A DNA stretch of 44,338 nt, taken from IMG/VR virus record IMGVR_UViG_3300034032_000018, positions 1-44,338 of that record; one strand, given 5' to 3'. The stretch comes from a virus (taxonomy: Duplodnaviria; Caudoviricetes). The notes beneath the pieces were generated by a model that saw only the letters and a program-made list of their open reading frames with translations, was not told the origin of the DNA and did not search any database. The translations under genes were made by a program, and so were the position numbers. How positions within the stretch are numbered: position 1 is the stretch's first letter; every line of letters begins with the position of its first letter. Below are positions 24,092 to 42,927 of this stretch, piece after piece.

Positions 24092-24102
24092 CGGAGAGTC
24101 CT

Positions 24103-25471: not shown

Positions 25472-25472
25472 C

Positions 25473-26607: not shown

Positions 26608-26618
26608 AGGAGTACGGC

Positions 26619-27005
26619 ATGGTCACTCCCTTCCAGCTCGAGGTGCGCCAGTACGTCAAGGCGGTCGTGGGTGGCCTCATGTCCGCGCTGCCGCTGCTGA
26701 TCGACGCGCTCAACAGCGACGGGCTCTCGCGCAACGAGGGTCTCGCCGCAGTGCTCGCCTTCGTCGTCGGGTTCAGCGCCGTCTTCTACGCGCCGAACCT
26801 CGCCGCCAAGGGACAGCGCGCTGACCCCGACCTGAGCGAGCAGGACCCGCTCGGCGCCGACCGCATCGACGCCATCGCCGATCTCGACGCCGGCTCGCGG
26901 CGTGTCCGCGGCGACGAGGGCGTCGGCCAGGTGACGCTCATCGTGCTCGTGGTGCTCGCCGTCATGGCGGTGCTGTTCATCGTCCTGCCCGCGCTGGGCG
27001 CGTGA
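26619..27005 (+). CDS. holin
   Basis: Directly after the lysin; YVKAVVGG..., AVFYAPN; 2-3 TM segments; GAGGAG RBS. Confidence 0.75.
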   Translation: MVTPFQLEVRQYVKAVVGGLMSALPLLIDALNSDGLSRNEGLAAVLAFVVGFSAVFYAPNLAAKGQRADPDLSEQDPLGADRIDAIADLDAGSRRVRGDEGVGQVTLIVLVVLAVMAVLFIVLPALGA

Positions 27006-27757
27006 TCACGCTTCGCGACGGGACCGAGGTCGAGGACCAGCGCCTCGACCGGCTCATCCCGCCCAACTTCGACCACATGGACAAGTACCCGCTGTCCATG
27101 TCGACGCTGCCCGCGACGCGCACGGCGATGGTCATGGGCGTCAACTGGTACTCCAACTTCGACCGACCGCAGCCGCTCAAGGTCGGGCGCAAGACGTGGC
27201 AGAGCATCGGGCGCGGCCCGCTCGGCAACGTCCGTGGCGGGCATGCGACCTGCCTCAAGCACTACGGGCTCTCCGACCTCGTGGCGTGGTGGGTCCACTA
27301 CAACCAGCTCAACGAGGGCCGCTGCGTCGAGTTCGCCACGCTGCGCGCCATGACGCTGCACAACCGCGTGCGCTACGACATCACCTCGCGGTGGCACTAC
27401 AAGCAGATGCAGAAGATCGACTACTGGCCCGGCGAGGACTACGAGGGCACCTCGGTCGACGCGGGGCTCAACGTCATGCGCCGGTACGGAGCGATCCCGG
27501 CGTTCTACAAGGGTGCCCCGATCAGCCCCGAGCAGGCGCCGTCCCTGGTGCGCCCCGAGGAGGGCATCGCCGCCTTCCGCTGGGCGCAGTCGTGGGACAT
27601 GGTCCGCACCGCGCTCGGCGTCCCCGACTCACTCCCCGGCGTGCCGATGCTCAACTCGTGGGGGCGCGGCTACCCGCACGAGACCCTGCTGCTCGACGAG
27701 GCAGGTGCGCGGCTGCTCCACGAGGACGGCGAGTTCGGGATGATCACCGACCGCTGA
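27002..27757 (+). CDS. papain-like (C1) cysteine peptidase with rearranged motif order
   Basis: Q...GRC (NQLNEGRCVEFA), WPGEDYEGTSV, GGHA and NSWG motifs. Confidence 0.7.
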   Translation: MITLRDGTEVEDQRLDRLIPPNFDHMDKYPLSMSTLPATRTAMVMGVNWYSNFDRPQPLKVGRKTWQSIGRGPLGNVRGGHATCLKHYGLSDLVAWWVHYNQLNEGRCVEFATLRAMTLHNRVRYDITSRWHYKQMQKIDYWPGEDYEGTSVDAGLNVMRRYGAIPAFYKGAPISPEQAPSLVRPEEGIAAFRWAQSWDMVRTALGVPDSLPGVPMLNSWGRGYPHETLLLDEAGARLLHEDGEFGMITDR

Positions 27758-27770
27758 CCCAGATCGACTG

Positions 27771-27801
27771 AGCCCCGGTAGCCTGGTGCTGCCGGGGCTT
27801 C
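27771..27801 (+). terminator. hairpin terminator
   Basis: AGCCCCGGTAGC / GCTGCCGGGGCT stem (one G-U pair) followed by TCGTCGT. Confidence 0.7.
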
Positions 27802-27824
27802 GTCGTAGGTAGGGAGTGTGACCT

Positions 27825-30800
27825 GTGACGATTGGCTACGGCACCCTTGGCTCGGCCCAGGCCAAGGCCAGCGGCACCTCGCTGACGATCACCACGACCG
27901 AGGCGGTGCCCAAGGGCGCCACGGTCATCGTGCGGTACGGCTTCGACAACAACGCCGCCGGCAGCGCCACCGCGAGCGCTCCCGCAGCGGGCACGCTGAC
28001 CTGCTCGACGACCGGCGCCGTCACGGGCGCCACGGTGCGTGCCACGATGAGCAGCGGCTCGGCGTCCGCTGCGGGCGTCAGCCTCAACATCTGGACCTTC
28101 GTCGCGGGCGTCGTCATCCCCGCGGGCGCGACGATCACGGTCACCATCGCCGCTGCGGTCGTCGCTCGAGCAGCATCGGCAGCCTGGATCGGCGCCACCT
28201 GGGCGGCAACGAGCAGCGCCCGTGCGACGACTGGCACCGGCTCGGTCAGCGCCACGCCGACCGCGGCGACGCAGGCTGCGGTCGCCACGATCTGCGGCGA
28301 GGACAACCAGGCGCAGGCGTTCGGGCAGGTCGTCGGCTGGGACACCGGCATCCAGGTCGGCACCACGGGCGGCACCGCCAACACGAACGTCGTGCTGATC
28401 TCGGCGCGCAAGATGATCGTCGGCGCGACCACGGCGCAGACCTACAACCCCAGCGGCGTCTACGCGGGCGGCGACTGGACCGCCTCCATGCTGCTGTTCA
28501 ATGACACCAGCCCGTCGGTCTCGGCGCTCTCGCCGACGTCTGCGTCGAACGCGGCGCCGGTCACCATCACGATCACGGGCGCCAACTTCACTGACGTGAC
28601 CGGCGTGATGCTCGACAGCACCCCGGCGACCAGCTACACGGTCAACTCGACGACGCAGATCACCGCGACCTTCCCGGCCAACATGCCGGGCGGGGTCAAG
28701 AGCCTCGTGGTCACGGCTCGCGGCTCGTGGTCGAACGGCGACCCCTTCACCGTCGTCGGCCAGGTCTTCAACCTCGTGCCCGCCGACGCCTTCCACGAGC
28801 ACCACGCCGACACCACGACGATTGTCGATGCGGGCCCGCCGCCCGCCGACGCCTACCTCGCCGCCGTGCTCGCCGACGCGCCTCTGGCGTACTGGCGCCT
28901 GAGCGGAGACGCCCTCGACGAGGTCAGCACGCACCACGGCACTTTCACGGCCCTCGAGGGCTGGGGTCCGACGACCGACGCTCCCGGTCTGGCTGGCGGC
29001 ACCGACACCGCTCGCTACTTCCCGCGAGAGACGGGAGTGGCGGTCCCGCACGCCGCGGCGCTGAACCTCAAGACAGCGACCGGATGGACCGTCGAGTTCA
29101 TCGCCAAGCCTGACGACCCGCAGGTCTACGCCTACCCGTCCTTCCTGCGGAAGGGCAACGCCACCATCGACGGCTGGCTGTTCTACTACGCCCTGCCGGC
29201 GGATCCCACCGTCCGCAGCCTCGTCCTCAAGGTCCCCGGCTTCGAGGATGGCGCGCAGCTCGGCGTCGTCCCCGGCGTTGCACACCACTACGCGGTCACG
29301 CAGACCACCGACGGTGTGCTGCGCTTCTACCGCGACGGTGTGCTGCTGCGGACGCTAGGTCCGGTCACGATCAACAGCACGACCGTCGCGGAGTTGACCC
29401 TCGCCAACGGTGACGCCTCGCTGCAGGGCGTCATGGACGAGGTCGCGATCTACCCGACCGCGCTGTCCGAGGCGCGGCTGCTGGCTCACCACCAGGCACG
29501 CACGGCGTCGCCCACGCCGGTCGTGCACAACCTCGTCCCCGACGACGCCCTGCACGCCACGCGAGCCGACACGACGTCGCTCACCCAGCAGCACGCACTG
29601 AGCCCGGTCGACGCGCTCCACATTCACCGCGCCGACGCGACGACGCAGACGCAGCGCCACTCCTTCGTCCCGGTCGACGCCTTCCACGAGCACCGCGGGG
29701 ACACCTCGCTGCTCACGCAGGGCCACGTCTTCGCGCCCACCGACGCCCGACACAGCCACATCGCCGACGCCGCCGCGATGACGCAGCAGCACGCCCTGGC
29801 GCCACGGGACGCCGACCACGCACACCGCGCCGACGCTGCGTCGATCACCCAGGCGCACGTCCTTGTCCCGACCGACGTCTCGCACCCGCACACAGCGGAC
29901 TCCGTGGCGCTCACGGGCACGCACAGCCTGAGCCCGGTCGATGCGCGGCACGAGCACCGCGCTGACGTCGCAAGCCTCGCCATCACGCACAACCTCGCGC
30001 CGGTCGACACCCGCCACGAGCACCGTGCCGATGCGACGACGCAGACCGGCGTGCACCTGCTGAGCCCTGACGACACCCGGCACGAGCACGTCGCGGACGA
30101 GTCGGCGGTCGACGACGCGCTGCCGTCCCTGTCGACGCTCGTCGACCCGTTCGACGTCGAGCGCACCGACCTCTGGGACGGCTACGACCAGCCCGAGATC
30201 TCAGTGGTCGACGGACAGCTGGAGATCGTCAGGACCGCTGCCTACGCCGGCATGGGTGCGCGACGCTCCTACGGGCCCGGTCGCTTCGAGGTCCGCGTGC
30301 CCAACGTGGCCCACGAGGTCGCCCAGATGGACACCGGCATCGAGGTCCACATCGCTCTCGCCAACCACACGATCTTCGTCGAGTCCTACATGCTCTACGC
30401 CGGTCACACGGGCGCCTTCGTCATCACCTCGGCGTACGACCCCGTCCGCGACGCCTTCTGGTGCATCGACGTCGATGACGCCGGCATGGTCACCTACCAG
30501 ACCAGCCCCGATGGCGTGACGTGGCAGACGATCCACGCAGAGACCGAGCCGGTCGACGTCTCCGAAGGGTTGTGGCCTGTCTTCTCCGCGGGCTTCTGGG
30601 TCGACCCTGGCGTGCGCTCCGTGGCGCGCTACGGCGCCGTCAACGTCCACGAGGCGGCGGTCGTCTACGACCTCGTCCCCGACGATGCAACGCACCCGCA
30701 CCGCACGACGACGTCGGCGCTGAGCCAGGACCACGCGCTCGCGCCCGACGACGCCCACCACGAGCACGTCGCGGACGAGACGACGTCAACCGGCGTGCAC

Positions 30801-31835
30801 ACGCTGGTGCCGGTCGACGCTTCGCACAGCCACACCGCAGATGTGACCGTGGCGACCGGCACGCACATCCTGGCACCCGCCGACGCCCGGCACGAGCACA
30901 TCGCCGACACGACGACGTCAGGACAGATCCACAACCTTGCGCCACGCGACGCGCAGCACAGCTCTACGGCGGATCCTTCGTCGCTGACGCAGGTGCACAA
31001 CCTCGTCCCCACCGACGCGAGCCACCCGCACCACGCCGAGACCACGTCGATGACCGGCGAGGGCACGGTGTTCCCCGAGGACGCTCGCCACGAGCATCGG
31101 GCGACCGAGTCGGCGCTGACCCAGGTCCACGTCCTGACGCCCAGCGACGCCCGCCACGAGCACCGCGCCGACAGCGCCGGCCTGGGCCAGGCGCAGGAGT
31201 TGCAGCCCGACGACGCTCGCCACGAGCACACCGCGGACACCAGCAGCATGGGTGCGACGCACTTCCTGACGCCGACCGACGCCCGGCACAGCCACACCGC
31301 GGACTCGACCGAGGCGACGCAGGCGCACGCACTGGCGCCGCGGGACGCCGCGCACCCGTCGCGGGCCGACGCCTCGGCGCTGACGCAGGTGCACAACCTC
31401 GAGCCTCGCGATGCGCGCCACGAGCACCGCGCTGACACAGCACTGGCGAGCCTCATCTCGTTCTTCCAGCCCAGCGACGCCTTCCACGCTGTACGGGCCT
31501 CTGCCGCGTCGGCCACCCAGGTACACCGCCTGAGCCCCGAAGACGCCGCTGTGGCCCACACAGCCCGTGCCACGTCGCTGTCCGTCGAGTACCTGCTGAG
31601 CCCCGACGACGCCCGGCACGAGCACCACGCCGATCCGAGCGCCGCCTTCTCCGGTCGCCTCGCCATGCCGGTCGGTCGGACCCACGTCGTGCCTGCCGAG
31701 ATCCGCGTCGTGCACGTCCCCGAGGACGTCCGTCGACTGGTCGAGCTGCCCGAGTGGCGCCGCGTCACGGTGCCCGTCGAGGAGCGCGTGCTCGTCGTGG
31801 CAGGCGAGACACGCACGGAGCGTGTTCGGCCCTAG
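27825..31835 (+). CDS. large fibre-like protein: IPT/TIG, LamG-like and lectin-like domains plus His-rich 22-aa repeats
   Basis: SALSPTS...VTITITGANFT...TVNSTTQITAT (IPT/TIG); YLAAVLADAPLAYWRL...GVMDEVAIYPTALS (LamG-like); tandem repeats. Confidence 0.75.
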   Translation: MTIGYGTLGSAQAKASGTSLTITTTEAVPKGATVIVRYGFDNNAAGSATASAPAAGTLTCSTTGAVTGATVRATMSSGSASAAGVSLNIWTFVAGVVIPAGATITVTIAAAVVARAASAAWIGATWAATSSARATTGTGSVSATPTAATQAAVATICGEDNQAQAFGQVVGWDTGIQVGTTGGTANTNVVLISARKMIVGATTAQTYNPSGVYAGGDWTASMLLFNDTSPSVSALSPTSASNAAPVTITITGANFTDVTGVMLDSTPATSYTVNSTTQITATFPANMPGGVKSLVVTARGSWSNGDPFTVVGQVFNLVPADAFHEHHADTTTIVDAGPPPADAYLAAVLADAPLAYWRLSGDALDEVSTHHGTFTALEGWGPTTDAPGLAGGTDTARYFPRETGVAVPHAAALNLKTATGWTVEFIAKPDDPQVYAYPSFLRKGNATIDGWLFYYALPADPTVRSLVLKVPGFEDGAQLGVVPGVAHHYAVTQTTDGVLRFYRDGVLLRTLGPVTINSTTVAELTLANGDASLQGVMDEVAIYPTALSEARLLAHHQARTASPTPVVHNLVPDDALHATRADTTSLTQQHALSPVDALHIHRADATTQTQRHSFVPVDAFHEHRGDTSLLTQGHVFAPTDARHSHIADAAAMTQQHALAPRDADHAHRADAASITQAHVLVPTDVSHPHTADSVALTGTHSLSPVDARHEHRADVASLAITHNLAPVDTRHEHRADATTQTGVHLLSPDDTRHEHVADESAVDDALPSLSTLVDPFDVERTDLWDGYDQPEISVVDGQLEIVRTAAYAGMGARRSYGPGRFEVRVPNVAHEVAQMDTGIEVHIALANHTIFVESYMLYAGHTGAFVITSAYDPVRDAFWCIDVDDAGMVTYQTSPDGVTWQTIHAETEPVDVSEGLWPVFSAGFWVDPGVRSVARYGAVNVHEAAVVYDLVPDDATHPHRTTTSALSQDHALAPDDAHHEHVADETTSTGVHTLVPVDASHSHTADVTVATGTHILAPADARHEHIADTTTSGQIHNLAPRDAQHSSTADPSSLTQVHNLVPTDASHPHHAETTSMTGEGTVFPEDARHEHRATESALTQVHVLTPSDARHEHRADSAGLGQAQELQPDDARHEHTADTSSMGATHFLTPTDARHSHTADSTEATQAHALAPRDAAHPSRADASALTQVHNLEPRDARHEHRADTALASLISFFQPSDAFHAVRASAASATQVHRLSPEDAAVAHTARATSLSVEYLLSPDDARHEHHADPSAAFSGRLAMPVGRTHVVPAEIRVVHVPEDVRRLVELPEWRRVTVPVEERVLVVAGETRTERVRP
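29523..30116 (+). repeat. 9 x 66-bp coding repeats (xHxLxPxDAxHxHxAD)
   Basis: Counted from the translation. Confidence 0.9.
30663..31652 (+). repeat. 15 x 66-bp coding repeats (same unit)
   Basis: Counted from the translation. Confidence 0.9.
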
Positions 31836-31873
31836 ACTGGGCGTTACCACACCCACATCAGGAGGACGCCGTC

Positions 31874-32257
31874 ATGGCGAAGTACACCGACGACTACGTC
31901 CTGGACGGCTCTGCGCTGCGCGTCGCCGAGGGCAACGAGCTCCGCATCTGCGCCGGACAGCCGACCTCCTTCGCCGACTCCACCACGCGCCGCCTCGGCA
32001 GCATCGCCATGACGCCGGGCACGGGCGGCGGCGACTACTCGCTGGCGAACGGCGACGTCAACGGGCGCAAGGTCACCGTGGCGGCACAGACGGGGATCGC
32101 CGTGGCGACCACGGGCACCGCTGACCACGTCGCCATCGTGGACACCGTCAACAGCCGGCTGCTCCACGCCACCACGATGCCCTCGCAGACCGTCACGGCG
32201 GGCAACACGGCGAACACCGCTGCGTGGGACGCCGAGTTCGGCGACGTGACGCCCTAG
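31874..32257 (+). CDS. putative fibre-associated structural protein (127 aa)
   Basis: AGGAGG RBS, ATG 31874; Thr/Gly/Ala-rich beta protein. Confidence 0.65.
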   Translation: MAKYTDDYVLDGSALRVAEGNELRICAGQPTSFADSTTRRLGSIAMTPGTGGGDYSLANGDVNGRKVTVAAQTGIAVATTGTADHVAIVDTVNSRLLHATTMPSQTVTAGNTANTAAWDAEFGDVTP

Positions 32258-32259
32258 CC

Positions 32260-32547
32260 ATGGCGGGCTCCTTCAAGAAGGACCCGAGCGCGATCCTCGA
32301 CTACGGCTTCGACTGGACCGCGTGGCTCGGCGCCGACACCATCGCGGTGTCGGACTGGACTATCGCCGGTCCCGACACCTCGCTGACCCTGACGCCGGAC
32401 CGCCCCGTCCAGGCCGACGCGCACTCGACGCTGTGCTGGCTCCATGGCGGGACCGCGGGGGTCACCTACGACCTGACGAACCGAGTCACGACCGTCGGCG
32501 GGCGGGTCGACGACCGCACCGTCAAGATCGTCGTCGTCCAGAAATGA
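32260..32547 (+). CDS. putative fibre-tail adaptor protein
   Basis: KDPSAILDYGFDWTAWL...WLHGGTAG..Y..TNRVTT.GGR.DDRT pattern of small phage fibre adaptors. Confidence 0.7.
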   Translation: MAGSFKKDPSAILDYGFDWTAWLGADTIAVSDWTIAGPDTSLTLTPDRPVQADAHSTLCWLHGGTAGVTYDLTNRVTTVGGRVDDRTVKIVVVQK

Positions 32548-32548
32548 T

Positions 32549-32803
32549 CTAGGGGGCACATGATCGTTTGCCCCCTAGCCCCCCATTCTGGGCCATCGTG
32601 CCCCCAAGATCATCATGCCTCTGACCTGCGAAGATAGGCCGGATGATCTACGAGGGGGCACAGGGGGCAGCGAAATCAACTCGGCTCCATACGTCATGCG
32701 ATAGCGATGTGAAATCCGTGCCCCCACCTGCCCCCAAGATCGCCTGGACTGCATAACCGCAGGCCAGAGGGGGTGCGCCGTGGGGGCACAGCACTGTGCC
32801 CCC
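32549..32803. repeat. non-coding array of nine GGGGGCA/TGCCCCC heptamers in both orientations (origin-like)
   Basis: GGGGGCA at 32552, 32654, 32663, 32782; TGCCCCC at 32569, 32599, 32719, 32729, 32797. Confidence 0.85.
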
Positions 32804-32849
32804 TTGATCATCCGGGGCAGGGCGTCACTCACAGCTCCCCGTTGGTTAC

Positions 32850-32880
32850 TTGACAGCGCTCTGTCAGCATGTGATACCCT
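32850..32880 (+). promoter_or_regulatory. putative promoter with TGACAG-N4-CTGTCA palindrome upstream of the T4SS-like operon
   Basis: TTGACA 32850-32855 and TACCCT 32875-32880 (19-nt spacer); palindrome 32851-32866. Confidence 0.55.
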
Positions 32881-32906: not shown

Positions 32907-33191
32907 ATGCTCCCCGAGATCACTGTGCTGGCGCTGACGGCGCCTGGCACCTTCAACCCGAGCGCGACCGTCACCATCGTGCGGACGCTGCTCATCGCCG
33001 GCGTCTCCGTGGCGCTGGTCTGGATCAGCCTCGCCACCCTGTTCGGCAGCGCCCGTCAGGGCAACAGCGGCAAGGTCGCCCGCGTGCTCGCGGCGGTCGT
33101 CCTCGCGCTCGTGCCGCTCGTCATCGCCATCGGGATCGGCGCCTCGCAGTTCGGGACGTCCATCTTCGGCTGGCTGTTCCCCGGCTTCTAG
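32907..33191 (+). CDS. pilin-like (VirB2-like) small membrane protein
   Basis: 94 aa, two hydrophobic helices with a short basic linker; first gene of the VirB4 operon; the call rests on topology and synteny. Confidence 0.6.
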   Translation: MLPEITVLALTAPGTFNPSATVTIVRTLLIAGVSVALVWISLATLFGSARQGNSGKVARVLAAVVLALVPLVIAIGIGASQFGTSIFGWLFPGF

Positions 33192-33194
33192 GCC

Positions 33195-34043
33195 GTGCAG
33201 CGCTCAGACTCCCCAGCGCGCTCCGTCCCTGGCTACTGGCTGGGCGACCCGTCGGCTGGGTTCCGCTGGCCCTTCGATTGGACCTTCGCCGCATGGCGCG
33301 TCTGGGCCGGGCTCATCATCCCGCTCGCCTTCCTGCTGGTCTTCGCGATCCCCGCAGCCGCCCTGCTCGTCTTCGCGGCCTGGCGCTTCGGTGTACGGGG
33401 CCAGCCGCACATCCCGCAGGTCCGACACTCGTCGGGGCGCAACCTCACCGTCTACAGCGTGGCGGGCACCGTCCTGCTCGGCGCCTTCGCGGTGGCCCCG
33501 ACGACCGCTTGGCTGTTCCCGCTCTACTGGCCCGTCGCGCTGCTCGCGGCGCCGCTGGTCAGCGCGTACCTCACCAAGAAGCTCCGCCCGTTCTTCGACG
33601 ACATCAACACGCCGGTCTCCTACTGGACGTCGCTGCTGCCGCGCATCGCCCGCGGCCCCCGCGCCGCCCGCAAGACCTACGAGTACATCCCGCTCAGCGC
33701 CATGGAGCCCGGCATCGCTGCGCTCTCCGACCTCGAGTACCTCGCCCTGACCATCGACCCCCGAGAGGTGATCGTGAAGACTGCCAAGCCCAAGGCCCCG
33801 ACTCTGCAGTGGGACCAGTGGATGCCCACCGACATGCAGCGGGGTGCGAACACCCTCGCCTGGCTGAGCAGCCTCGGCGTCGGCACGGAGGTCACCGCAG
33901 GCAACGTGCTCCTCGTCAAGCGCGGCGACGTCGTCACCCAGGTGCGGCCCGGCGCCATCGTCGTGCAGATGGCTGACGGCGCGATCCACGCCATGACCGA
34001 CCACGCGTTCCGCGCCGAGTTCGACGTGGTGCACGGTGGCTAG
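33195..34043 (+). CDS. membrane protein in the VirB3/PrgI/TcpE position, with an extra soluble C-terminal domain
   Basis: Several TM segments; upstream of the VirB4-like ATPase. Confidence 0.55.
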   Translation: MQRSDSPARSVPGYWLGDPSAGFRWPFDWTFAAWRVWAGLIIPLAFLLVFAIPAAALLVFAAWRFGVRGQPHIPQVRHSSGRNLTVYSVAGTVLLGAFAVAPTTAWLFPLYWPVALLAAPLVSAYLTKKLRPFFDDINTPVSYWTSLLPRIARGPRAARKTYEYIPLSAMEPGIAALSDLEYLALTIDPREVIVKTAKPKAPTLQWDQWMPTDMQRGANTLAWLSSLGVGTEVTAGNVLLVKRGDVVTQVRPGAIVVQMADGAIHAMTDHAFRAEFDVVHGG

Positions 34044-34230
34044 CGCGGGGCGTGAGCAGACACCAACGTGGCCGCGTGTCCTCGACAACCCGAAGGCGTG
34101 CGGTGCACCGAAGAAGTCCAGGTGGGGCTACCTGCCCTGCGGCTGCACCCACAACGGCTACGGCGGTCACATGTACAACCGCGTGCCGACTGCCGACGCC
34201 AACTCCTCGACATCAGAGGTGGCGCGATGA
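34036..34230 (+). CDS. small Cys/His-containing hypothetical protein (64 aa)
   Basis: Overlaps both neighbours (ATGA at 34227-34230); C...CGCTHNG..GH. Confidence 0.5.
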   Translation: MASAGREQTPTWPRVLDNPKACGAPKKSRWGYLPCGCTHNGYGGHMYNRVPTADANSSTSEVAR

Positions 34231-36935
34231 GCCTCATCGACCGGATCCGCAAGCCGATCCACTCCGACCCCGCGCCGCACACCCGGCAGTTCTTCGACAA
34301 CCTGCTCGTCACGACGCAGGGTCGGGTGTTCGCGGGCTTCCGCATGGGCGACGTCCGCTGGGACTACACCGGCACCGAGGCCAAGGCCCGCACGCTGGAT
34401 CAGGTCCAGGACGGCTGGGCGCTGCTCGAGGGCACGCCGTACCACGAGCGCGTCACGACCCGTCCGCACCCGGTCGAGCACTGGGCAGCGCGCCTCGACG
34501 CCCGCACGCCGAACCCGCTGCCGGACGTGCACCTCTGCGAGCGCTTCAAGTTCTCCGACGAGGAGCTCAGCAGCGGAGCGTGCGGCTGCTACACCTGGAA
34601 CGCGCACCTGAGCGCCATGCAGCGCCGCATCGCGCAGACCGGGCAGGACGACAAGGTCGTCTTCCGCTACTTCCTCGTCGGCGACGTCGGGGGCATCGAC
34701 CTGCGCGCCGAGGCGCTGGGCATGCGCTGGGACGGCAAGCGCCCGTCAGACTCCGCTCGCGCCGTCTTCCAGCGCGCCAAGGAGATCGCCGACGCGGTCA
34801 CCGGGCCTGGCTGGGAGGCCCGCCGCATGACCGAGCGCGAGCAGGAGTGGCTGCGGCACCGCTCGCTGGGGATCGCCCTGCCTGCGCCACGGCTCACCGC
34901 CACCGGCAACGTCGGGTGGAGCGGCACCGACCTGCCTGCGCTCGCCACGGACATCCGGTGGGTCGAGCAGCCCTTCGACCGCAACGTGCGCCTCGTGGGA
35001 TGGCGCGACGGCAAGCAGATCGAGCGCGTCGTGCAGGTGCTGACCCTCGCGCTCGACCCCGGCACGCTCGACTACCCGAACAACGGGCTCGAGCCGTGGA
35101 TGGTCTACGCGGAGCGCGCCGTCGACCTCGACGGACGCCCCATCGGTGCGGAGTGGAGCGTCAACGGGCGCATCGCCACGGGCGAGGAGCTCAAGGCTCA
35201 GGCCGAGTTGGACCTGAGAAGGTCGCTGCACCTGGAGAAGGACTACCGCGACTTCAACGAGCCGCCTCGCGAGGACATCGCCCGCGGAATCATGCGCGCC
35301 AAGGAGGTCCGCGACGAGGTCGGCAAGCCGGCTCGCATCAGCGCCCGCTTCGTCGGCACCGTCAACATGGTCGTGTGGGGCGAGACCGCCTACCTCGACG
35401 GCAAGGTCGTCAAGACCGCCGAGGAGGTCGCGGAGGAACGCGCTGCCTCCATGACGCGCCTCTACGCGGGTGCCGACATGGGCTTCCACTTCGTCACCCC
35501 GCACGGCCAGGCTGCGAAGCTCGCCGAGTTCGTGCCGGGCGAGTACGAGGTCTGGGACAAGGTCGGCTACCAGCGCCAGTGGCCGCTCGACTTCCACTCG
35601 ACCGCGCTGCCGAACGTCTCGACGTCGGTCGGCGACGGGCACGGCCCCTACATGGGTCCGACCCGTGGCGCGGCCAAGCGCCCGACCTTCCACGACAGCC
35701 ACTACGCCACCGAGGGCCGCTCGACCGGGCGTGGGCAGAACATGTGGCTCTGGATCTCCACGCTCGGCGGCGGCAAGACGGTCGGCTGCGTCGGCTCGGT
35801 CGGCTACAACGCCGTCCGGCGCGGCATCCGCACGCTGGTCAGCGACCCGTCCGGCCCGACCCTGGCGCTCACCCGGCTGCCCGAGCTGGCCCCGTACAGC
35901 AATGGGTTCAACCTGCTCAAGGGCGAGGCGGGCATCCTCAACCCGCCGTCGCTCGTGCGTGACCCGATCCGCGAGGAGTTCGAGGTCGACGACGACGGCG
36001 AGCGGCGCGACCCCGACGAGGTCGACGACCACTTCTCACGCGCACGCGTGCTCGCCATGGGACGTCGTGAGTCCCTGGTGCGCGACGTGGCCCGTCGCAT
36101 GCTCGAGGCTGACCTCTACGACCACCCGCAGACACGCCGGGCCCTGCGCGACGCCGCACGCGGCACCGTGTGGACCCGTGAGCGGACCATGTGGGACCTC
36201 GTGGACCGCCTGCTGCAGGGCGACGAGCACTCCCGCGACGTCGGCGAGGTGCTGCGGGACGCCTCGGACCTGCCCCGGCTCAACCTGCTGTTCGCGCCGC
36301 GCACCGAGGGCGGGGACTTCATCACGAGCGGGCTCAAGCGTGCCGTGTTCACCGTCGTCGCGACGCCGGGCGTCAAGCGCGCACCAGACTCCAAGGCCCG
36401 CGCCGACTGGGATCAGGAAGAGCTCAGCGCCGACGCGGTCACCTACCTCACCGGCCTCTACACCGGCAGGGAGGTCTACGACAAGCCGATGGACGAGCGC
36501 GCCGTCTTCATCGCCGACGAGGCCGAGACGCTGACCGACGGCGCCATGGGCAACGCGTTCCTGTCGACGCTGGGCCGCGACCACTCCAAGTGGAACATCG
36601 AGGCCCACCTGCTGCTCAAGAACCTCAACGAGGTCGTCATGCAGCGCGAGATCCTCAACTTCATCGCGGGCGTCTGGATCGGTCGCATGGCGAAGCTGGG
36701 CCCTGCGGAAGACCTCCTGGACACCCTCGGTTCCATCGACAGGGGCTACGCCAAGTCCCTGCTGCGCCTGAGCGAGCGGCGTCCCGGCGAGTTCGTCCAC
36801 GTCGATGCCGACAACCGCGTGGGCGGCATGGCGGTCGACCTCGGCTACATGCCGCACGTCCAGCGCGCCATCTTCACCACGCCGGACCCGACCGGGCACG
36901 GCGCGTGGGCCAGCAGCGAGGAGGTGCTCGGGTGA
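34227..36935 (+). CDS. virB4: VirB4-like conjugation ATPase (ConE/TcpF type, 902 aa)
   Basis: Walker A STLGGGKT, SDPSGP motif, Walker B VFIADEAE, RDHSKWN, GEFVHVD; long N-terminal region; flanked by membrane genes. Confidence 0.82.
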   Translation: MSLIDRIRKPIHSDPAPHTRQFFDNLLVTTQGRVFAGFRMGDVRWDYTGTEAKARTLDQVQDGWALLEGTPYHERVTTRPHPVEHWAARLDARTPNPLPDVHLCERFKFSDEELSSGACGCYTWNAHLSAMQRRIAQTGQDDKVVFRYFLVGDVGGIDLRAEALGMRWDGKRPSDSARAVFQRAKEIADAVTGPGWEARRMTEREQEWLRHRSLGIALPAPRLTATGNVGWSGTDLPALATDIRWVEQPFDRNVRLVGWRDGKQIERVVQVLTLALDPGTLDYPNNGLEPWMVYAERAVDLDGRPIGAEWSVNGRIATGEELKAQAELDLRRSLHLEKDYRDFNEPPREDIARGIMRAKEVRDEVGKPARISARFVGTVNMVVWGETAYLDGKVVKTAEEVAEERAASMTRLYAGADMGFHFVTPHGQAAKLAEFVPGEYEVWDKVGYQRQWPLDFHSTALPNVSTSVGDGHGPYMGPTRGAAKRPTFHDSHYATEGRSTGRGQNMWLWISTLGGGKTVGCVGSVGYNAVRRGIRTLVSDPSGPTLALTRLPELAPYSNGFNLLKGEAGILNPPSLVRDPIREEFEVDDDGERRDPDEVDDHFSRARVLAMGRRESLVRDVARRMLEADLYDHPQTRRALRDAARGTVWTRERTMWDLVDRLLQGDEHSRDVGEVLRDASDLPRLNLLFAPRTEGGDFITSGLKRAVFTVVATPGVKRAPDSKARADWDQEELSADAVTYLTGLYTGREVYDKPMDERAVFIADEAETLTDGAMGNAFLSTLGRDHSKWNIEAHLLLKNLNEVVMQREILNFIAGVWIGRMAKLGPAEDLLDTLGSIDRGYAKSLLRLSERRPGEFVHVDADNRVGGMAVDLGYMPHVQRAIFTTPDPTGHGAWASSEEVLG

Positions 36936-38710
36936 GGCGCCCGACACGAGTGCCGGTGCGCCGCATGATGATCGTGCTCGGCCTGCTCACCACACTGCTG
37001 TTCATCGTCATGGTCGCGGGCGGTGGCGCGGCTCGCGCTGCCGAGGGCCCGATGGGCGACCCCGGCGACGTCGGTATCTGGGACCGCATCAAGGGCACCG
37101 TGTCCAACGAGTGCCTCGCGGGCCCGCCCGAGGTCCAGTCGCCACGGGGCGAGGGCTTCCCGACGCCCTTCGTGCAGGTCCCCGAGACCATCGCGGGCGG
37201 AGCGCAAGGCCAGTGGCAGGAGTACGGCTTCGCCGGCCTCAAGTCCTTCACCTACGACATGGGCTGCACGATCACGAACGGGCCCAGCCAGGTCCAGGCG
37301 GCGTTCAACACCGGCACCGCCAACGACCTCGTCGGGCTCGCGCACTTCCTCACCGCCGTGGCCGACTTCATGGACAAGGCGTCGTGGGATCCGCGGTGGA
37401 TCACGGCGTTCTTCACCGACCTGGCGAGCACGCTCGTCGAGGCGTTCCGGCTCGCTGCGTTCCTGCCCTACGCCGCCATCGGCCTGATCTTCACCGTGAT
37501 CATGCTGCTGTGGCGCTCGCGCAAGGGCCAGGTCAGCACCGTGGCGCTGGGGACCGCCTGGGCCGCGACGGTCATCGTGGTCGCCACGCTGATCATGTCG
37601 AGTCCGCTGCTGCTGCCCAGCCTCGTGCAGAACCAGAGCGGCGGCATGGTGAGCGCGCTCTACAACGGCGAGGACCCGAGCGAGGCCGCGACCACGCGCA
37701 CGGTCGAGGCCATCCACGAGCAGGGCGCGCTGCGCCGCATGTTCGGCACGGACCCCTCCCCCGCTGCTGTCGCGGCGTTCCCGACGATCCTGCGCTCGAC
37801 GTCGTGGTCGTGGGTCGAGTACAAGGCGATCCAGGCTGACCCGGCGAGCAAGCAGGCCATGTGGGAGGCCAAGATGGACGCGCTCAACGAGGTCACCGCC
37901 GACCTCAAGGAGGCCGACCCGCAGGCGTACCAGAAGATGACGGGGCTCGAGCAGGACCGCATCGACCCCGCCGCGCTGGAGCTCGGCTACTCCGCAGTGA
38001 CCAACCTGTTCCGCATCGCCGCCGCCTTCCTGCGCGTGCTGTGCATCGTGGCGATCTTCATCATCGGGCTCGCCTGGCTGTTCGCGGCACCCTTCATCGT
38101 CACGCCGCAGGGCGAGAACACCGGGCGCGGCCTGCTCAACAACACCCTGCGCGCCGTCGGCTACTGCATCATCTCGATCTTGGGCTCCTACGGCTTCACG
38201 ACGTGGGCCGCCTTCGCCATGGCGCCGGACCTCACCGAGGGTCTGAGCCTGATCCTGTTGCTCATCGGGACCGTCGTGTTCTGGTCGCTGATCCGCCCCG
38301 ACCGCAAGATCCTCTCTCTCGCCACAGCGGGGAAGGTGCAGGGCTTCGGTGGGCTGACCAAGTTCCTCATCGACAAGATCAGCACCGCGGCGGCGGTCGG
38401 CGTCGGGGCCAAGGTCGGCACCGAGGCGGGCACCACGACGTCGAAGACGAGCGGCGCCAAGCCGACGTCCAGCGAGGAGTACGACCCGCCCGTCTACGAG
38501 GGAGTCGTCATCGACGAGCCACGCCCGGTCTACCAGCGCGGCGCGGGGCTCCCCTCGACGCCCACCGTGATCGACGGCGAGGCGTGGGAGGTCCGTCCGA
38601 CCGCGGGCGCGCTCGACGCTGAGCCCTCCAAGGTCGACGACGTCTCGGTGCCGCACTCCGAGGTCCGCTATGAGGTCGAGGTCTACCAGCGACCCCTGGT
38701 CGACCAGTGA
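36932..38710 (+). CDS. VirB6/TcpH-like polytopic membrane protein
   Basis: Signal-like N-terminus, extracellular loop with YDMGC, 6 or more TM segments, acidic low-complexity tail; GTGA-coupled to the ATPase. Confidence 0.7.
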   Translation: MRRPTRVPVRRMMIVLGLLTTLLFIVMVAGGGAARAAEGPMGDPGDVGIWDRIKGTVSNECLAGPPEVQSPRGEGFPTPFVQVPETIAGGAQGQWQEYGFAGLKSFTYDMGCTITNGPSQVQAAFNTGTANDLVGLAHFLTAVADFMDKASWDPRWITAFFTDLASTLVEAFRLAAFLPYAAIGLIFTVIMLLWRSRKGQVSTVALGTAWAATVIVVATLIMSSPLLLPSLVQNQSGGMVSALYNGEDPSEAATTRTVEAIHEQGALRRMFGTDPSPAAVAAFPTILRSTSWSWVEYKAIQADPASKQAMWEAKMDALNEVTADLKEADPQAYQKMTGLEQDRIDPAALELGYSAVTNLFRIAAAFLRVLCIVAIFIIGLAWLFAAPFIVTPQGENTGRGLLNNTLRAVGYCIISILGSYGFTTWAAFAMAPDLTEGLSLILLLIGTVVFWSLIRPDRKILSLATAGKVQGFGGLTKFLIDKISTAAAVGVGAKVGTEAGTTTSKTSGAKPTSSEEYDPPVYEGVVIDEPRPVYQRGAGLPSTPTVIDGEAWEVRPTAGALDAEPSKVDDVSVPHSEVRYEVEVYQRPLVDQ

Positions 38711-39120
38711 GCGCCGCCCTGCGGTGGCTGTTCACCACGCCCTCTCGCCTCTACGGCACCGTCGGCGCCCTGATCTGTCTCATGGTGATCTTCATGGTCG
38801 TCGTGATCGGCGTGCGCGTGGCGACGCTGCCCGTTGCGCCACGGAACGCCGGGGCGCAGGCGACCGAGCGGGCCTTCCCCGACGACAACGTCACCGAGGT
38901 CCCCGTCGACCTCGTGAAGCCGGGCAACCTCGAGGAGGCCGCGATGGCGTCCGTGGCCGAGGACGGGCACGGCAAGCCGGTCAGCGCCAAGGTCACCGCT
39001 CGCGACGGGCTTGTCCAGGTGGTCGAGGTGACGACGTCGACCGGCGAGGTGGGCGAGGTCATCCTGACTACCGACGGGCCGACCTTCGTCAAGGACAGCG
39101 TCACCTGGCGCAAGCCGTGA
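38707..39120 (+). CDS. bitopic membrane protein (possibly VirB8/TcpC-like)
   Basis: One N-terminal TM segment followed by a helix plus beta-strand domain; GTGA overlaps. Confidence 0.5.
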   Translation: MSAALRWLFTTPSRLYGTVGALICLMVIFMVVVIGVRVATLPVAPRNAGAQATERAFPDDNVTEVPVDLVKPGNLEEAAMASVAEDGHGKPVSAKVTARDGLVQVVEVTTSTGEVGEVILTTDGPTFVKDSVTWRKP

Positions 39121-40160
39121 AGCGCCTGGTGATCGTCGTGGCGGCGCTGCTTGCGCTGGGTTTCGTCCTCATCCCATCGCCGGGTGACGTGGCGGGCGCT
39201 GCGCTGGTCGAGCAACCAGCAGAGTGCGTAGACGACGCAACGGATGCCCCTGCCGGCCCCCCTGTACAGGTAGGGAGCGCCACGCAGGTCACGATGGCCG
39301 AGCTCGCTTCGCTGACCCGCGCCGCCCGCTTCGACGAGTACGGCGAGCAGGTGCTGCAGACCGCGGTGGCGACGTTCTGGCACGAGAGTGCTCGCGGCCA
39401 GATCAAGGCGAGGAACCCGACGTCGGGCGCCGCGGGGCTCACCCAGATCATGCCCGCCAACTACCGGAACCTCGGCGGCGACCCCGACGTGCCCGCAGAG
39501 AACCTCCGCATGGCGAAGCAACTCGCCGACGAGCGCGTCAAGGCGGGGCGCGACCCGCTGGGCCCGTGGGTGTCCTACACGAACGGCGCCTACGAAGAGT
39601 TCATGGACGAGGCGGCGGTCGCCCTCAAGGGCGGCTCCGTAGCGCCCAAGCCCGCCTACGAGAGCGCCGTGGCGGCGCCGTGCGGCTCGACCCCTGCCGT
39701 GCTCACCGCAGCGGGCCCTCCCGGCGCCGTAGGGCCCATCACGGGCAGCAACGGGCAGCTGGACACCTCCAAGCTCTGCCGCGTCGCCATCGCGCCGATG
39801 GCCGACCACATGGCGCTGCTGCAGTGCCCCGCGGCCAAGGCGCTCGACGCGCTGGCCGTGGCGTACGAGGCTGACCGCGGAGAGCGACTGTGCTACGGCA
39901 ACGGGTATCGCTCGCTGGCACAGCAGGTCACGCTCGCTCGGACCAAGCCGGGCCTCGCGGCGAAGGCTGGGACGTCGAACCACGGGTGGGGCCTGGCCGT
40001 CGACCTCTGCAACGGCGTCAACATCTTCGGCCACCCGGCGCATCAGTGGATGGTCAAGAACGCCGGACAGTTCGGCTGGATTCACCCGAAGTGGGCGCAG
40101 CGCAGCGGATCTCGTCCCGAGCCCTGGCACTGGGAGTACGGGGACACCTCGGCGTACTGA
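39117..40160 (+). CDS. secreted bifunctional cell-wall hydrolase: lytic transglycosylase + M15 (VanY-like) peptidase; VirB1/CwlT equivalent
   Basis: Signal/anchor; HES...NPTSGAAGLTQIMP (SLT); YRS..QQ, GTSNHGWGLAVD, EPWHWEY (M15). Confidence 0.88.
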   Translation: MKRLVIVVAALLALGFVLIPSPGDVAGAALVEQPAECVDDATDAPAGPPVQVGSATQVTMAELASLTRAARFDEYGEQVLQTAVATFWHESARGQIKARNPTSGAAGLTQIMPANYRNLGGDPDVPAENLRMAKQLADERVKAGRDPLGPWVSYTNGAYEEFMDEAAVALKGGSVAPKPAYESAVAAPCGSTPAVLTAAGPPGAVGPITGSNGQLDTSKLCRVAIAPMADHMALLQCPAAKALDALAVAYEADRGERLCYGNGYRSLAQQVTLARTKPGLAAKAGTSNHGWGLAVDLCNGVNIFGHPAHQWMVKNAGQFGWIHPKWAQRSGSRPEPWHWEYGDTSAY

Positions 40161-40166
40161 CACAGG

Positions 40167-40193
40167 AGGGCCTCGCCTGTTCGACGAGGCCCT
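40167..40193 (+). terminator. hairpin terminator ending the T4SS-like operon
   Basis: AGGGCCTCG / CGAGGCCCT 9-bp stem. Confidence 0.6.
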
Positions 40194-40299
40194 GCCCGCC
40201 TCTGCTCCCCAGCAGGGTCACCCGCCATCGCAACGAGGCTGTGCGGCGGGCTGCGACAAGCATCGGGGCTGTCCCGACGCTCGTCAACCGCACGGTCTG

Positions 40300-40329
40300 T
40301 TGACGTCCTGTCAAGAGTATGCGATCATC
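40300..40329 (+). promoter_or_regulatory. putative promoter/operator upstream of the RHH gene
   Basis: TTGAC-GTCCT-GTCAA palindrome over a TTGACG -35; the -10 is unclear. Confidence 0.45.
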
Positions 40330-40355
40330 GTTGGAACCAACCGAAGGAGGGTGCC

Positions 40356-40553
40356 GTGGCACTCGTGGCCGAGTTCACCGAGCCGCTCAACAGCATGGTC
40401 AGGCCCGATCAGCGGGAGTACGTTGACAAGCGCGCCGAGAAGCCAGGCGTCTCGCGAGGATCCCTCGTCCGTGACGCCCTGGACCTGCTCATGACGGCGC
40501 AGCCACTCGACTCGGAGCCGGATGTGCGGGAGACTGTCAGCCCCTCGCAGTAG
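40356..40553 (+). CDS. ribbon-helix-helix (CopG/Arc-like) DNA-binding protein
   Basis: PLNSMVRPDQREYVDKRAEKPGVSRGSLVRDALD fits strand-helix-G.S.S-helix; AAGGAGG RBS. Confidence 0.72.
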   Translation: MALVAEFTEPLNSMVRPDQREYVDKRAEKPGVSRGSLVRDALDLLMTAQPLDSEPDVRETVSPSQ

Positions 40554-40602: not shown

Positions 40603-42927
40603 ATGACTCTGTCCGTCCCCGTGATCACCGAAGACATGGACGTCACTCGCGCCGCGCTGGCCTACGCTGCAGCCGGCTGGTACGTCGTCCCAGTCAAGCA
40701 CGACACCAAGGCCCCCACCGTGCTCGGCAAGGGGTGGCAGCACCAGTCCTCGCGTGACCCCGAGCAGATCGTCGCGTGGTTCGCGGGCACGAACCACGCG
40801 CTTGGGCTGCACGTCGGTCGCTCAGGCGCCATCGTCTTCGACCTCGACGAGCCGGACTGCATCCCCGCAGTGCTGCAGCACGCCATCGAGACCGAGGCGC
40901 CGCCCTACCAGTCCTCGCGGGTCAACGTGCCGAACCAGGGCCACTACGTCTTCGCGGTACCGCCCGGTCGCTACTTCGGGAACGGGCGCGGCGGCATCAT
41001 GCACCCCGAGCACAAGGGCAAGTGGGGCGAGGTCCGTGGCGCCAACGGGATCATCGTCGCGGAGCCGTCCCTGCACACGAAGCCGGGCGGGCGCTACCAC
41101 TGGGTGAACGATGAGGGCGAGGCGCAGGAAGTCCCCGAACTTCCGAGCGAGCTCGCCGACCTGCTTCCCGACGGCACGCCGTCGAGCGACGTCGCCACCG
41201 ACGAGACCGTGGCGACCTTCCTGACCGAGCACCGCGCCGCGTCGGCGCCGCACCTGCTCACCCCGATCCTGCGGCGCTTCGCCAAAGAGGTCGAGGGGCA
41301 GTCCCGGCACGAGGCGCTGGTCGCCGCAGGGGCGTGGGCCATGCGTGACGCCCGAGCGGGCATCATCGACGCCCAGGAGGCGTACGACCAGCTGCAGACG
41401 CTGTTCCTCAAGGCCATGGCTGGCGAGGCCGGGCACGGTCGCTTCCCCAAGTCCGAGTTCCGCGGCGTCATGGCGTGGGCGGTCGGCCAGGCTCTCGCCA
41501 TCGACCCCGAGGCCCGCCGCGAGACGGTCGTGGAGCGCGTGGAGAAGCCCGCCGAGATCGGTGGGGACTGGGACACGCTGGACCCTACTGAGGCGCCCGC
41601 GGCTGCCCCTGCCGCCACGGAGCGGCGCCGAGACAGCGACGACTACTGGTACCGCGACTTCCTGCTGAACAAGATGGACGTCGACTCCGAGCTGCTGCTC
41701 AAGGACGTCATCGGGGCGGGGCCCATCGCCATCGCCCGCGACCACCGCTTCTGGTCCTACGAGGACGGCGTGTGGCGCGAGGACAACCTCGTCGTGCGCG
41801 AGCGCGTCATCGGGTGCCTCCGCAAGCGCGTGAAGCCGAACCACTGGTCGCTCATCGAGCAGATGCTGCAAGTGCCCGGCGTGATCCCGGCGCTCGAGGG
41901 TGACCCCACGCCTGACATGATCAACTTTCGGAACGGCATGCTCGACTGGAAGTCCGGCACGCTCATGCCGCACGCGCCGTCGTACCTGTCGACGATCCAG
42001 CTGCCGGTCGACTATGACATGACGGCGACCTGCCCGGCCTTCGATGAGTGGCTGAGCGAAATCCTCTCGCCGGACTACGTCAAGTTGGCCTGGCAGATGA
42101 TCGGCTACCTGATGATGAGCGGCAATCCGCTGCAGGTCGCCTTCCTCATGCTCGGCAAGGGCGGCAACGGTAAGGGCACGCTCATGCGCGTCATCAAGGC
42201 GCTGCTGGGCGACGAGAACATCAGCGCGCTGAGCCTCGACGACATCACGGGCAACCGCTTCGCCCCCGCCGGCCTCTACGGCAAGATCGCGAACCTCGCG
42301 GGTGACATCGACTCGACCTTCCAGGAGTCGACGGCGAAGTTCAAGATGCTGACCGGCGAGGACATGTTCACCGCCGAGAACAAGAACGCCCAGCCCTTCC
42401 GCTTCACCAACTGGGCGGTCCCGGTCTTCTCGGCCAACAAGATCTTCGGGTCCTCCGACACGACCGAGGGTTACCTGCGTCGCTGGATCATCATGAAGTT
42501 CGACCGGACCATCCCCAGTCACAAGCGGATCGCTGGGCTCGAGCGTCGCTTCATGAGCGAGCTGTCCGGCATCGCGTGGCGCGGCCTGGAGGCGCTGCGC
42601 GAACTCATGGAGGCCGGGCACTTCAAGGACGACGGCGACGTGAAGCAGGGCAAGGAGGAGTTCACCGAGGCGCTGGATCAGGTGCGCCAGTGGGTCTCGG
42701 AGTGCACCGCGCCGGACGACGGCAGCGAGGAGCGCACGGCCCTCTACGAGTCGTACAAGATGTGGGCGCACAAGGTCGGCGTCGGCACCCTGAGCGCCAA
42801 GGAGTTCTACAGCCGCCTCGACGGTGCGGGCTACCCCGCCGCCAAGGTGCACGGCGTCCGTCGCCACAAGGGCCTGCGCGTCACCGTGGCGCGCATGATG
42901 AGCGACGCCATGCTCACAGAGAGTTGA
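40603..42927 (+). CDS. bifunctional primase-polymerase fused to a D5/P4-type SF3 helicase
   Basis: ALAYAAAGWYVVPV, IVFDLD, GHYVF, EPSLH (prim-pol); INFRNGMLD, GKGGNGKGT, KMLTGED, FSANK, YLRRW (SF3). Confidence 0.92.
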   Translation: MTLSVPVITEDMDVTRAALAYAAAGWYVVPVKHDTKAPTVLGKGWQHQSSRDPEQIVAWFAGTNHALGLHVGRSGAIVFDLDEPDCIPAVLQHAIETEAPPYQSSRVNVPNQGHYVFAVPPGRYFGNGRGGIMHPEHKGKWGEVRGANGIIVAEPSLHTKPGGRYHWVNDEGEAQEVPELPSELADLLPDGTPSSDVATDETVATFLTEHRAASAPHLLTPILRRFAKEVEGQSRHEALVAAGAWAMRDARAGIIDAQEAYDQLQTLFLKAMAGEAGHGRFPKSEFRGVMAWAVGQALAIDPEARRETVVERVEKPAEIGGDWDTLDPTEAPAAAPAATERRRDSDDYWYRDFLLNKMDVDSELLLKDVIGAGPIAIARDHRFWSYEDGVWREDNLVVRERVIGCLRKRVKPNHWSLIEQMLQVPGVIPALEGDPTPDMINFRNGMLDWKSGTLMPHAPSYLSTIQLPVDYDMTATCPAFDEWLSEILSPDYVKLAWQMIGYLMMSGNPLQVAFLMLGKGGNGKGTLMRVIKALLGDENISALSLDDITGNRFAPAGLYGKIANLAGDIDSTFQESTAKFKMLTGEDMFTAENKNAQPFRFTNWAVPVFSANKIFGSSDTTEGYLRRWIIMKFDRTIPSHKRIAGLERRFMSELSGIAWRGLEALRELMEAGHFKDDGDVKQGKEEFTEALDQVRQWVSECTAPDDGSEERTALYESYKMWAHKVGVGTLSAKEFYSRLDGAGYPAAKVHGVRRHKGLRVTVARMMSDAMLTES

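Follow-up and report, generated by a model that had tools for sequence, protein, structure and literature searches.

The stretch of DNA analysed here (hereafter the window) is IMG/VR virus record IMGVR_UViG_3300034032_000018 over its full length of 44,338 nucleotides, and comes from a tailed phage (Duplodnaviria; Caudoviricetes). At the site given by an initial annotation of this DNA, i.e., between the fibre-like and gp77-like genes on one side and a ribbon-helix-helix (RHH) gene with a Prim-Pol/D5 primase-helicase on the other, the window carries an operon that resembles the type IV secretion system (T4SS) channel of conjugative elements. The seven co-oriented open reading frames (ORFs) described there (94, 282, 64, 902, 592, 137, and 347 aa) are indeed open, and their coupling is as described at four of the six junctions (ATGA/GTGA), the others being one 8-bp overlap and one 3-bp gap.

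32907..33191, + strand: two-helix pilin-like (VirB2-position) protein, 94 aa
33195..34043, + strand: VirB3/TcpE-position membrane protein, 282 aa
34036..34230, + strand: small Cys/His ORF, 64 aa, GC content at third codon positions (GC3) 0.81
34227..36935, + strand: VirB4 ATPase, 902 aa
36932..38710, + strand: VirB6/TrbL-like polytopic membrane protein, 592 aa
38707..39120, + strand: bitopic VirB8-like protein, minimal domain of NTF2/cystatin type, 137 aa
39117..40160, + strand: VirB1-like cell-wall hydrolase, SLT + M15/VanY, 347 aa (Pfam VanY 5e-12, SLT 0.005)

The initial annotation counted the small Cys/His protein as a member of the operon. As it has no homologue in any relative examined (best E 0.22), it is not conserved, and the conserved operon consists of six genes, not seven; the ORF is probably a phage insert or no gene.

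Domain libraries return a single weak AAA_10 match for the 902-aa ATPase. In a Foldseek search with an AF2 model built from 41 homologues (pLDDT 87), the top match was R388 TrwK/VirB4 over the full length (E 1.6e-19, 913 columns, TM 0.52), followed by lesser matches to HerA (best 1.8e-7, TM 0.26) and TrwB (3e-6), and the best match of the sequence profile in the PDB was the VirB4 structure 4ag5. The protein is thus VirB4-like, as first proposed, and not of the FtsK/HerA kind; the full-length VirB4 fold rules out a HerA or defence ATPase. All 44 close homologues have an intact Walker A, and 38 of them have a Walker B pattern. Another 43 homologues (37-70% identity) were recovered, many on contigs of 63-83 kb, and no match exists among 50,697 GenBank phages. 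A single-sequence scan of viral contigs found no VirB4, but an alignment-based scan did find loci.

The pilin-like and VirB3-position proteins match no library family (Pfam included, for the former) and are assigned by position, transmembrane pattern, and homology to genes of plasmid cassettes. All 12 family members of the pilin-like protein have two transmembrane helices, and when its profile was run against 12 proteins it matched the first gene in each of the two cassettes (E 6e-5 and 9e-4); position, helices, and homology together suggest that it is a pilin. The VirB3-position protein, for which the ESM Atlas was blank, has a conserved N-terminal part of ~160 aa and a variable C-terminal extension, and its profile matches the second cassette gene (E 1e-9 and 7e-8). 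The 592-aa protein resembles actinobacterial clusters in the ESM Atlas (features 0.97, TM 0.70), with TrbL on 11-25% of their members, and is homologous to the fourth cassette gene (E 2e-58). For the 137-aa protein, structural comparison lists TraM (Z 8.3, rmsd 2.3 over 67 aa), VirB8 (7.7), and DotI (7.1) at ranks 1, 3, and 6, a ranking that is supportive only, as cystatins tie (Z 7.0-7.9); Foldseek gave nothing under 0.001, and the protein is homologous to the fifth cassette gene (E 2.5e-11). The last gene does encode the SLT and VanY/M15 domains initially described, together with an N-terminal anchor, and in relatives the partner domain varies (M23 in L018, NlpC/P60 in L020).

The HNH-FtsK pump and the plasmid cassette

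Each of the five long relatives that have the operon (G001, G002, G004, G005, and G008), as well as locus L018, encodes a protein in which an HNH nuclease is followed by two hydrophobic segments and an FtsK motor whose Walker A is intact. In the databases this HNH-FtsK makes up a tight family of 22 proteins, and in an alignment of 24 rows the HNH residues C27, C30, D42, H43, N60, C65, and H74 do not vary. No relaxase (TrwC, Relaxase, MobA_MobL, Rep_trans, Mob_Pre) was detected in any of the five, with positive controls, while the Replic_Relax profile was uninformative owing to a silent control. The VirD4-type TraG-D_C domain is likewise absent (0/5), an FtsK-family protein being present instead, and neither tyrosine integrases (0/5, including the pCW3-type tyrosine recombinase) nor serine integrases (0/5) were found. 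In agreement with the initial annotation there is no tyrosine integrase in the window either; integrases are present in 17 of 34 terL-related records, mostly the more distant ones. Given that the relatives have a DNA pump and no relaxase, the transfer predicted for them is double-stranded and driven by FtsK, unlike the single-strand route with a relaxase that ICEBs1 and Tn916 use. Two proteins, a distant VirB4 (P0052, 1367 aa) and an HNH-FtsK (P0071, 891 aa), contain LAGLIDADG domains that are probably inteins.

The window VirB4 matches 86 plasmid records (E ≤ 1e-3), 85 of them actinobacterial and one from Bacillus, with no Clostridium or Enterococcus plasmid among them. In the two plasmids inspected, one from Streptomyces (NZ_CP029542) and pVAPN2012 (NZ_KP851975), both recorded as linear, an FtsK gene is divergent from a six-gene operon, and the first five conserved genes of the phage operon match the gene at the same position in both. 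The order of pilin-like, B3, VirB4, B6, B8, and hydrolase genes is the same, pNSL1 (NC_010850) is counted among the plasmids of this type, and the FtsK of these cassettes belongs to the same lineage as the phage pump; it is this linear-plasmid combination of a six-gene operon and a lineage-specific FtsK that we find in the phage relatives. When the best 40 of the 86 VirB4 matches were compared with the best 40 of 163 FtsK matches, 11 plasmids were common to both lists, with the two hits at most 5 kb apart in all 11. The HNH-FtsK proteins group with linear-plasmid FtsKs, separate from TraB and chromosomal FtsK (support 99.3/99), and the plasmid matches start after residue 175, leaving the HNH region uncovered. 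The cassettes occupy L164:8195-20078 (pVAPN2012) and L002:7367-18606, where the VirB2/3/4/6/8/1-like operon is unannotated.

As far as homology, gene order, and phylogeny can tell, the comparison shows that the operon and the HNH-FtsK descend from one actinomycete plasmid cassette, and we infer a single capture followed by fusion and relocation of the pump. The initial annotation had recognized a Gram-positive T4SS core in a phage, with ICEBs1, Tn916, and pCW3 as its nearest relatives. Its VirB4, VirB6, and hydrolase calls stand, whereas the family label has to be replaced, the nearest relatives being the FtsK and VirB4 cassettes found on plasmids of actinomycetes, which are linear in the cases checked. 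The plasmid pVAPN is described as self-transmissible through a relaxase-independent TraB/FtsK route for double-stranded DNA (PMC6852188), its TraB being named in PMC5434932, and conjugation of linear plasmids is thought to need no nickase, an FtsK-like motor transferring the duplex end-first (PMC13492992; PMC6852188 for pVAPN and pNSL1). Linear plasmids termed 'T4SS-independent' hence include carriers of a VirB4 operon beside a TraB-like gene. In PLSDB, 50 of the 86 matching plasmids are labelled non-mobilizable; relaxase-based typing tools would tend to miss these elements because they are relaxase-free.

The phage family and the surroundings of the operon

IMG/VR lists the record as linear, CheckV estimates its completeness at 62%, no terminal repeat was found in the window sequence, and relatives reach 70-81 kb, so the phage is not complete as initially assumed. 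The VirB4, capsid, and lysin proteins of the window are also recorded from a 46,839-base contig. Outside the operon the following genes were recognized.

1179..32547, + strand: siphovirus-type virion and lysis module (PHROGs/Pfam/NCBIfam)
1179-2846, + strand: terL, then portal, protease, and scaffold
6331-7335, + strand: HK97 capsid, tail genes downstream
14547-19220, + strand: tape measure
25654-26607, + strand: endolysin, followed by a 1336-aa fibre-like repeat protein
32260-32547, + strand: gp77-like adaptor
40603..42927, + strand: Prim-Pol/D5 (P4-family) primase-helicase (domain libraries)
42954-43373: Prok-JAB domain gene

The virion module has orthologues, in unchanged order, in G001, G002, G003, G005, and G008, and the family has the complete set of virion and lysis genes that is expected of a phage-plasmid. 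The best cultured relatives by terL are Arthrobacter phages (~55%), and the host can be placed in Actinomycetota at best resolution, on the basis of 58-72% GC, the terL matches, and a next-tier Kribbella homologue.

Scans gave 21 loci with the operon, 18 of them distinct (L013, L014, and L016 duplicate L007, L006, and L003). Tail genes of the window phage lie within 10 kb of the operon in 11 of the 18; of the others, two have a lysin-like match only, three are too short, and two (L020 and L023) are without a phage gene. The co-occurrence of terL and virB4, proposed initially as a check, was found in five of nine searchable operon records (terL at 63-69% identity) and in four of the four that are at least 90% complete. 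The 77,934-bp genome of G002 has a 127-bp direct terminal repeat, i.e., it assembles as a circle, with the operon inside; no inverted terminal repeat was detected in G001, G002, G004, G005, or G008, and all of these except G002 are without any end repeat. The operon GC3 tracks that of the tail genes from 0.64 to 0.96 across 11 contigs, the gap never exceeding 0.05, and the similar codon style noted in the window is borne out (operon vs structural genes, relative synonymous codon usage r 0.995; GC3 0.94 vs 0.92). The VirB4 tree (a quick version) and the tail tree share the clades (G002,L009), (G004,G005), and (G003,(L008,L015)), and distances are correlated between tail and VirB4 (Mantel rho 0.51 with n = 12, 0.61 with n = 10, p 0.02) and between VirB4 and FtsK (rho 0.68, p 0.02). 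In the closest pair, dN/dS is 0.10 for VirB4 and 0.19-0.37 for the other five operon genes, at a dS of 0.45-0.80 that is similar to that of the tail (0.63); judging from these substitutions, VirB4 is under purifying selection. The orientation of the operon with respect to the tail genes is reversed in G005 and L015, where the operon still lies beside the lysis module, and in G001 the primase lies between the lysin and pilin genes. Gene calls in relatives come from a codon-model caller, and some starts are inaccurate.

Two relatives, G011 (69 kb, 96%) and G014 (75.6 kb, 100%), share the head, tail, and primase, yet are without the operon and the HNH-FtsK. The absence of VirB4 was re-tested with controls in six whole records; the count of 0/32 for terL-related records is without a positive control. 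Because G014 is sister to the window (92/86 for terL and capsid, 96/93 for a tail gene) and G011 is nested among operon bearers, loss is the simpler reading, under a tree root of moderate support. G011 encodes a 679-aa TraB (G011:43703-45742, i.e., L145:5703-7742) whose best plasmid matches are from Streptomyces (39 of 43 records) and which groups with the TraB of pSVH1 (99.8/100), an apparent swap of conjugation systems. The slot of the operon in G014 (34798-36081, i.e., L148:15798-17081) holds a 427-aa anchored protein without a Pfam match at E ≤ 0.002; its motifs recall, as we presume, GH26 glycoside hydrolases.

The intergenic regions around the operon contain putative control elements.

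32551..32805, no strand assigned: GGGGGCA(C) repeat array in both orientations, with the motif CTGACCTGC
32850..32880, + strand: predicted operon promoter TTGACA-N19-TACCCT (from sequence)
~40165..40195, + strand: GC-rich hairpin after the last gene, no U-tail (z -2.2, 4/200 shuffles as good)
40300..40553, + strand: promoter with a TTGAC-N5-GTCAA palindrome and a CopG-like RHH gene

The 359-bp gap before the operon is not featureless, as had been thought, but holds nine of the 12 GGGGGCA copies of the window. Similar G-rich arrays occur in G008 (28462-28678 and 61225-61575), G011 (29664-29879 and 64866-65091), and G014 (58172-58326), often two per genome and ~33-35 kb apart, and a diverged second copy lies, at equal depth, on a separate contig of run X1, the probable source run. 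This pairing is reminiscent of what we take to be the two-site origin of P4-type primase replicons, and the array is likely an origin or iteron array of the primase-helicase rather than a transfer origin. A TraB-type clt/oriT was dropped as a reading because the operon-less relatives G011 and G014 carry the array too.

The operon does appear to have its own promoter, as first suggested: a generic promoter scanner made no call at 32850-32880, and the pilin gene has a similar pattern upstream of it in 9 of 14 loci, compared with 1.6% of shuffles, a post hoc comparison in which the pattern comes from the same sequences. A palindrome (TGACAG-CGCT-CTGTCA) overlapping this promoter is a candidate repressor operator. 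RHH orthologues are found in G001, G002, G004, G005, G008, and G014, and the TGAC/GTCA boxes before both the operon and the RHH gene, along with the conserved promoter, suggest control by the RHH protein, a candidate repressor of its own gene and of the operon. Of the terminator proposed initially, the GC-rich hairpin is there and the U-tail is not, and a terminator scanner did not call it.

Routes of spread and alternative explanations

We consider it probable, on genomic grounds, that the VirB4/FtsK machine transfers the phage's own DNA, be it from an episome or during infection. For the larger picture we lean slightly towards a non-integrating phage family of ~75 kb that may be extrachromosomal in its host and pass its double-stranded genome to touching cells in addition to forming virions. 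An ancestor would have taken the whole cassette from a linear plasmid; the primase-helicase and the repeat arrays could keep the genome episomal for some time, with the operon promoter repressed by the RHH protein. Upon expression, the hydrolase would open the wall, VirB2/3/4/6/8 would build the junction, and the membrane-anchored FtsK would pump duplex DNA end-first, while the HNH domain, which is not found on plasmid pumps, would cut circular or concatemeric phage DNA and so provide a free end, which linear plasmids have from the outset. Transfer might start either from a stable plasmid or during infection, given that there are no partition genes and no lysogen. Somewhat short of an even chance, and thus tentative, is the fullest version, i.e., a fully dual-mode family of actinobacterial siphoviruses that spread as virions and by conjugation through their own channel, in which the HNH-FtsK replaces relaxase and coupling protein and the system may be lost or swapped for TraB.

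Several observations weigh against such transfer. The pump lies 6-27 kb from the operon in relatives and outside the window contig, so that its presence in the window phage is an assumption: a comparison of run X1 with the FtsK region of G002 did not reveal the window phage's own FtsK, although an 8.3-kb contig (depth 7.9) with a 51-base match to the G002 endonuclease VII gene gives a weak hint that it may be part of the remaining genome. FtsK genes are also present in lytic Bacillus phages, for which we know of no mating channel. ParA (0/5), ParB (0/5), and, in a Pfam scan, a clear toxin-antitoxin pair are missing from the long relatives, i.e., they lack the usual markers of stable plasmid lysogeny. 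A pattern scan for lysogens in 185,579 genomes returned one locus, without phage genes, and the HNH-fused pump is absent from 401 sampled genomes. The congruence of VirB4 is not significant with terL (p 0.11), capsid (p 0.06), or primase (p 0.34), and dN/dS climbs to 0.3-1.0 in deeper pairs (range overall 0.15-1.0), whose dS has probably reached saturation owing to their high GC. The matching presence and absence of operon and pump rests on two negatives, and one of these, G014, which has neither system, shows by its gene content that the transfer genes are dispensable. An operon without a nearby FtsK also occurs in a chromosome (G009:C1:3735607-3742551, L048; an actinobacterial metagenome-assembled genome, MAG), among ordinary metabolic genes; no phage gene, FtsK, relaxase, or integrase was found among the neighbours scanned, and its VirB4 forms, together with that of L020, the sister branch to those of phages.

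Some of these points would suit a lytic or carrier-state phage that uses the same machine without a lasting plasmid state, pumping replicating genomes into neighbours or hyphal compartments and thereby bypassing receptors. Such a phage would need neither integrase nor ParA/B, would leave no lysogen to be found, and would have a lytic-type replication kit like that of the relatives (primase-helicase, exonuclease, endonuclease VII, and helicase). However, time is needed to build a channel of six genes with a conserved promoter of its own, TraB-type systems belong to persisting elements, and episomes tend to be lost in MAG binning, and we regard this scenario as unlikely. A little less likely still is a repurposed channel that moves no phage DNA and instead delivers proteins to neighbouring cells (among them, perhaps, the HNH nuclease or further effectors) or alters the envelope as a barrier to superinfection. 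The lack of relaxase and VirD4, the frequency of HNH as a toxin domain, and the fast divergence of the envelope genes would agree with it, but the partner retained is an FtsK DNA motor of a plasmid-transfer lineage with intact Walker A, its HNH is fused ahead of two hydrophobic segments, and TraB substitutes for it in G011. That operon and pump are unlinked, the FtsK-HNH serving replication, resolution, or packaging and the channel borrowing the coupling protein of a helper plasmid, would explain their separation, the FtsKs of unrelated lytic phages, and the solitary operon of G009; set against the single-cassette origin, the joint absence in G011 and G014, and the correlated divergence, we deem it quite improbable.

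An assembly chimera, or an integrative conjugative element (ICE) or plasmid abutting a prophage as in phage-ICE tandems, is largely refuted and very improbable. In its favour, the central contig of the operon in run X1 has the highest depth (9.8, flanks 7.3-8.4, all long contigs 7.3-9.8), and none of the listed pieces, taken singly, crosses 32693-32782 with 31 bases to spare on either side. Of the junction check suggested initially, the right side is spanned by one run X1 contig, and the left is merely tiled, by a piece from a second study that covers 32678-32900 with no differences and overlaps the left contig by 15 bases. The operon-phage linkage is nevertheless not a chimera, because it recurs in 11 other contigs, and codon bias is matched; neither is there an ICE beside a prophage, the operon lying inside phage genomes without integrase or relaxase and, in G002, between terminal repeats.

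The reading preferred here, transfer of the phage's own duplex DNA, has partial parallels in known systems. Compared with the linear-plasmid cassette, the phage FtsK is displaced and HNH-fused, there is no adjacent ParA, the cassette sits in a tailed-phage genome, and at least one phage member has direct terminal repeats and is not an invertron. The Streptomyces plasmid-phage pZL12 (and pSLE1) unites phage particle genes and conjugal transfer in one replicon (PMC3583192, PMC4487206), but does so with one tra gene of the TraB type and two neighbours, together with ParA/B, and a VirB4 channel is unmentioned in the available text of both papers; G011 resembles this type and the window does not. 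Phage-plasmids such as P1, N15, and the Pfeifer/Rocha families likewise have virion genes, autonomous replication genes, and no integrase, whereas no ParA/B was found in the window family, for which a plasmid state is putative. ICEBs1, Tn916, and pCW3 follow the same VirB1/2/3/4/6/8 logic, and pCW3 is described as using an FtsK-like coupling protein (PMC13492992); unlike them, the phage family has no relaxase, VirD4, or integrase. Phage genes also travel with a T4SS in phage-ICE tandems (PMC13651849) and Hodor megaplasmids (PMC12934698), which are described as composites of two separable elements, while the operon described here is embedded within a genome of phage size and inherited along with it. 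According to PMC12282955, conjugation is not known from any phage-plasmid or prophage, a statement that overlooks pZL12, and P1 derivatives are reported to have turned mobilisable upon loss of phage genes (PMC10879196). Searches of the full-text literature, mostly excluding subscription papers, turned up no phage that has a VirB4 channel of its own. Judged by gene content, the operon-bearing phages are an unusual but conserved hybrid, a tailed-phage family in which a type IV mating channel is combined with an HNH-FtsK pump; TraB-type plasmid-phages are already known from pZL12.

The family retains both virion and transfer gene sets intact across deep divergence. If cell-to-cell transfer is true, it blurs the boundary between phage and conjugative plasmid, and spread without receptors that spares the donor would uncouple host range from tail specificity, e.g., in soils and crusts, and conjugation would have a new means of initiation in the HNH-FtsK fusion.

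Some further genes deserve mention. An ArdC-like anti-restriction gene, of a family typical of conjugative plasmids, is present in G002 (L027:14737-15597) and G008. The 1336-aa protein of the window (27825-31835) has Laminin-G and TIG domains and many His-rich repeats of 22 aa (66-nt period), and together with its neighbours downstream of the lysin it is absent from the relatives examined. Most relatives have a Prok-JAB gene, with or without the operon, and a role in transfer is ruled out by its presence in the operon-less G014; it may be an anti-defence deubiquitinase-like protein or act in tail assembly. Finally, G016 (23748-39539; L156, L157), with a terL at 61% and a different tail, encodes a full FtsK, DUF2637, GntR/UTRA regulators, and a serine integrase. 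Its FtsK nests among chromosomal FtsKs, which rules out the TraB of an actinomycete ICE (AICE), and the gene set is reminiscent of actinomycete plasmid transfer regions.

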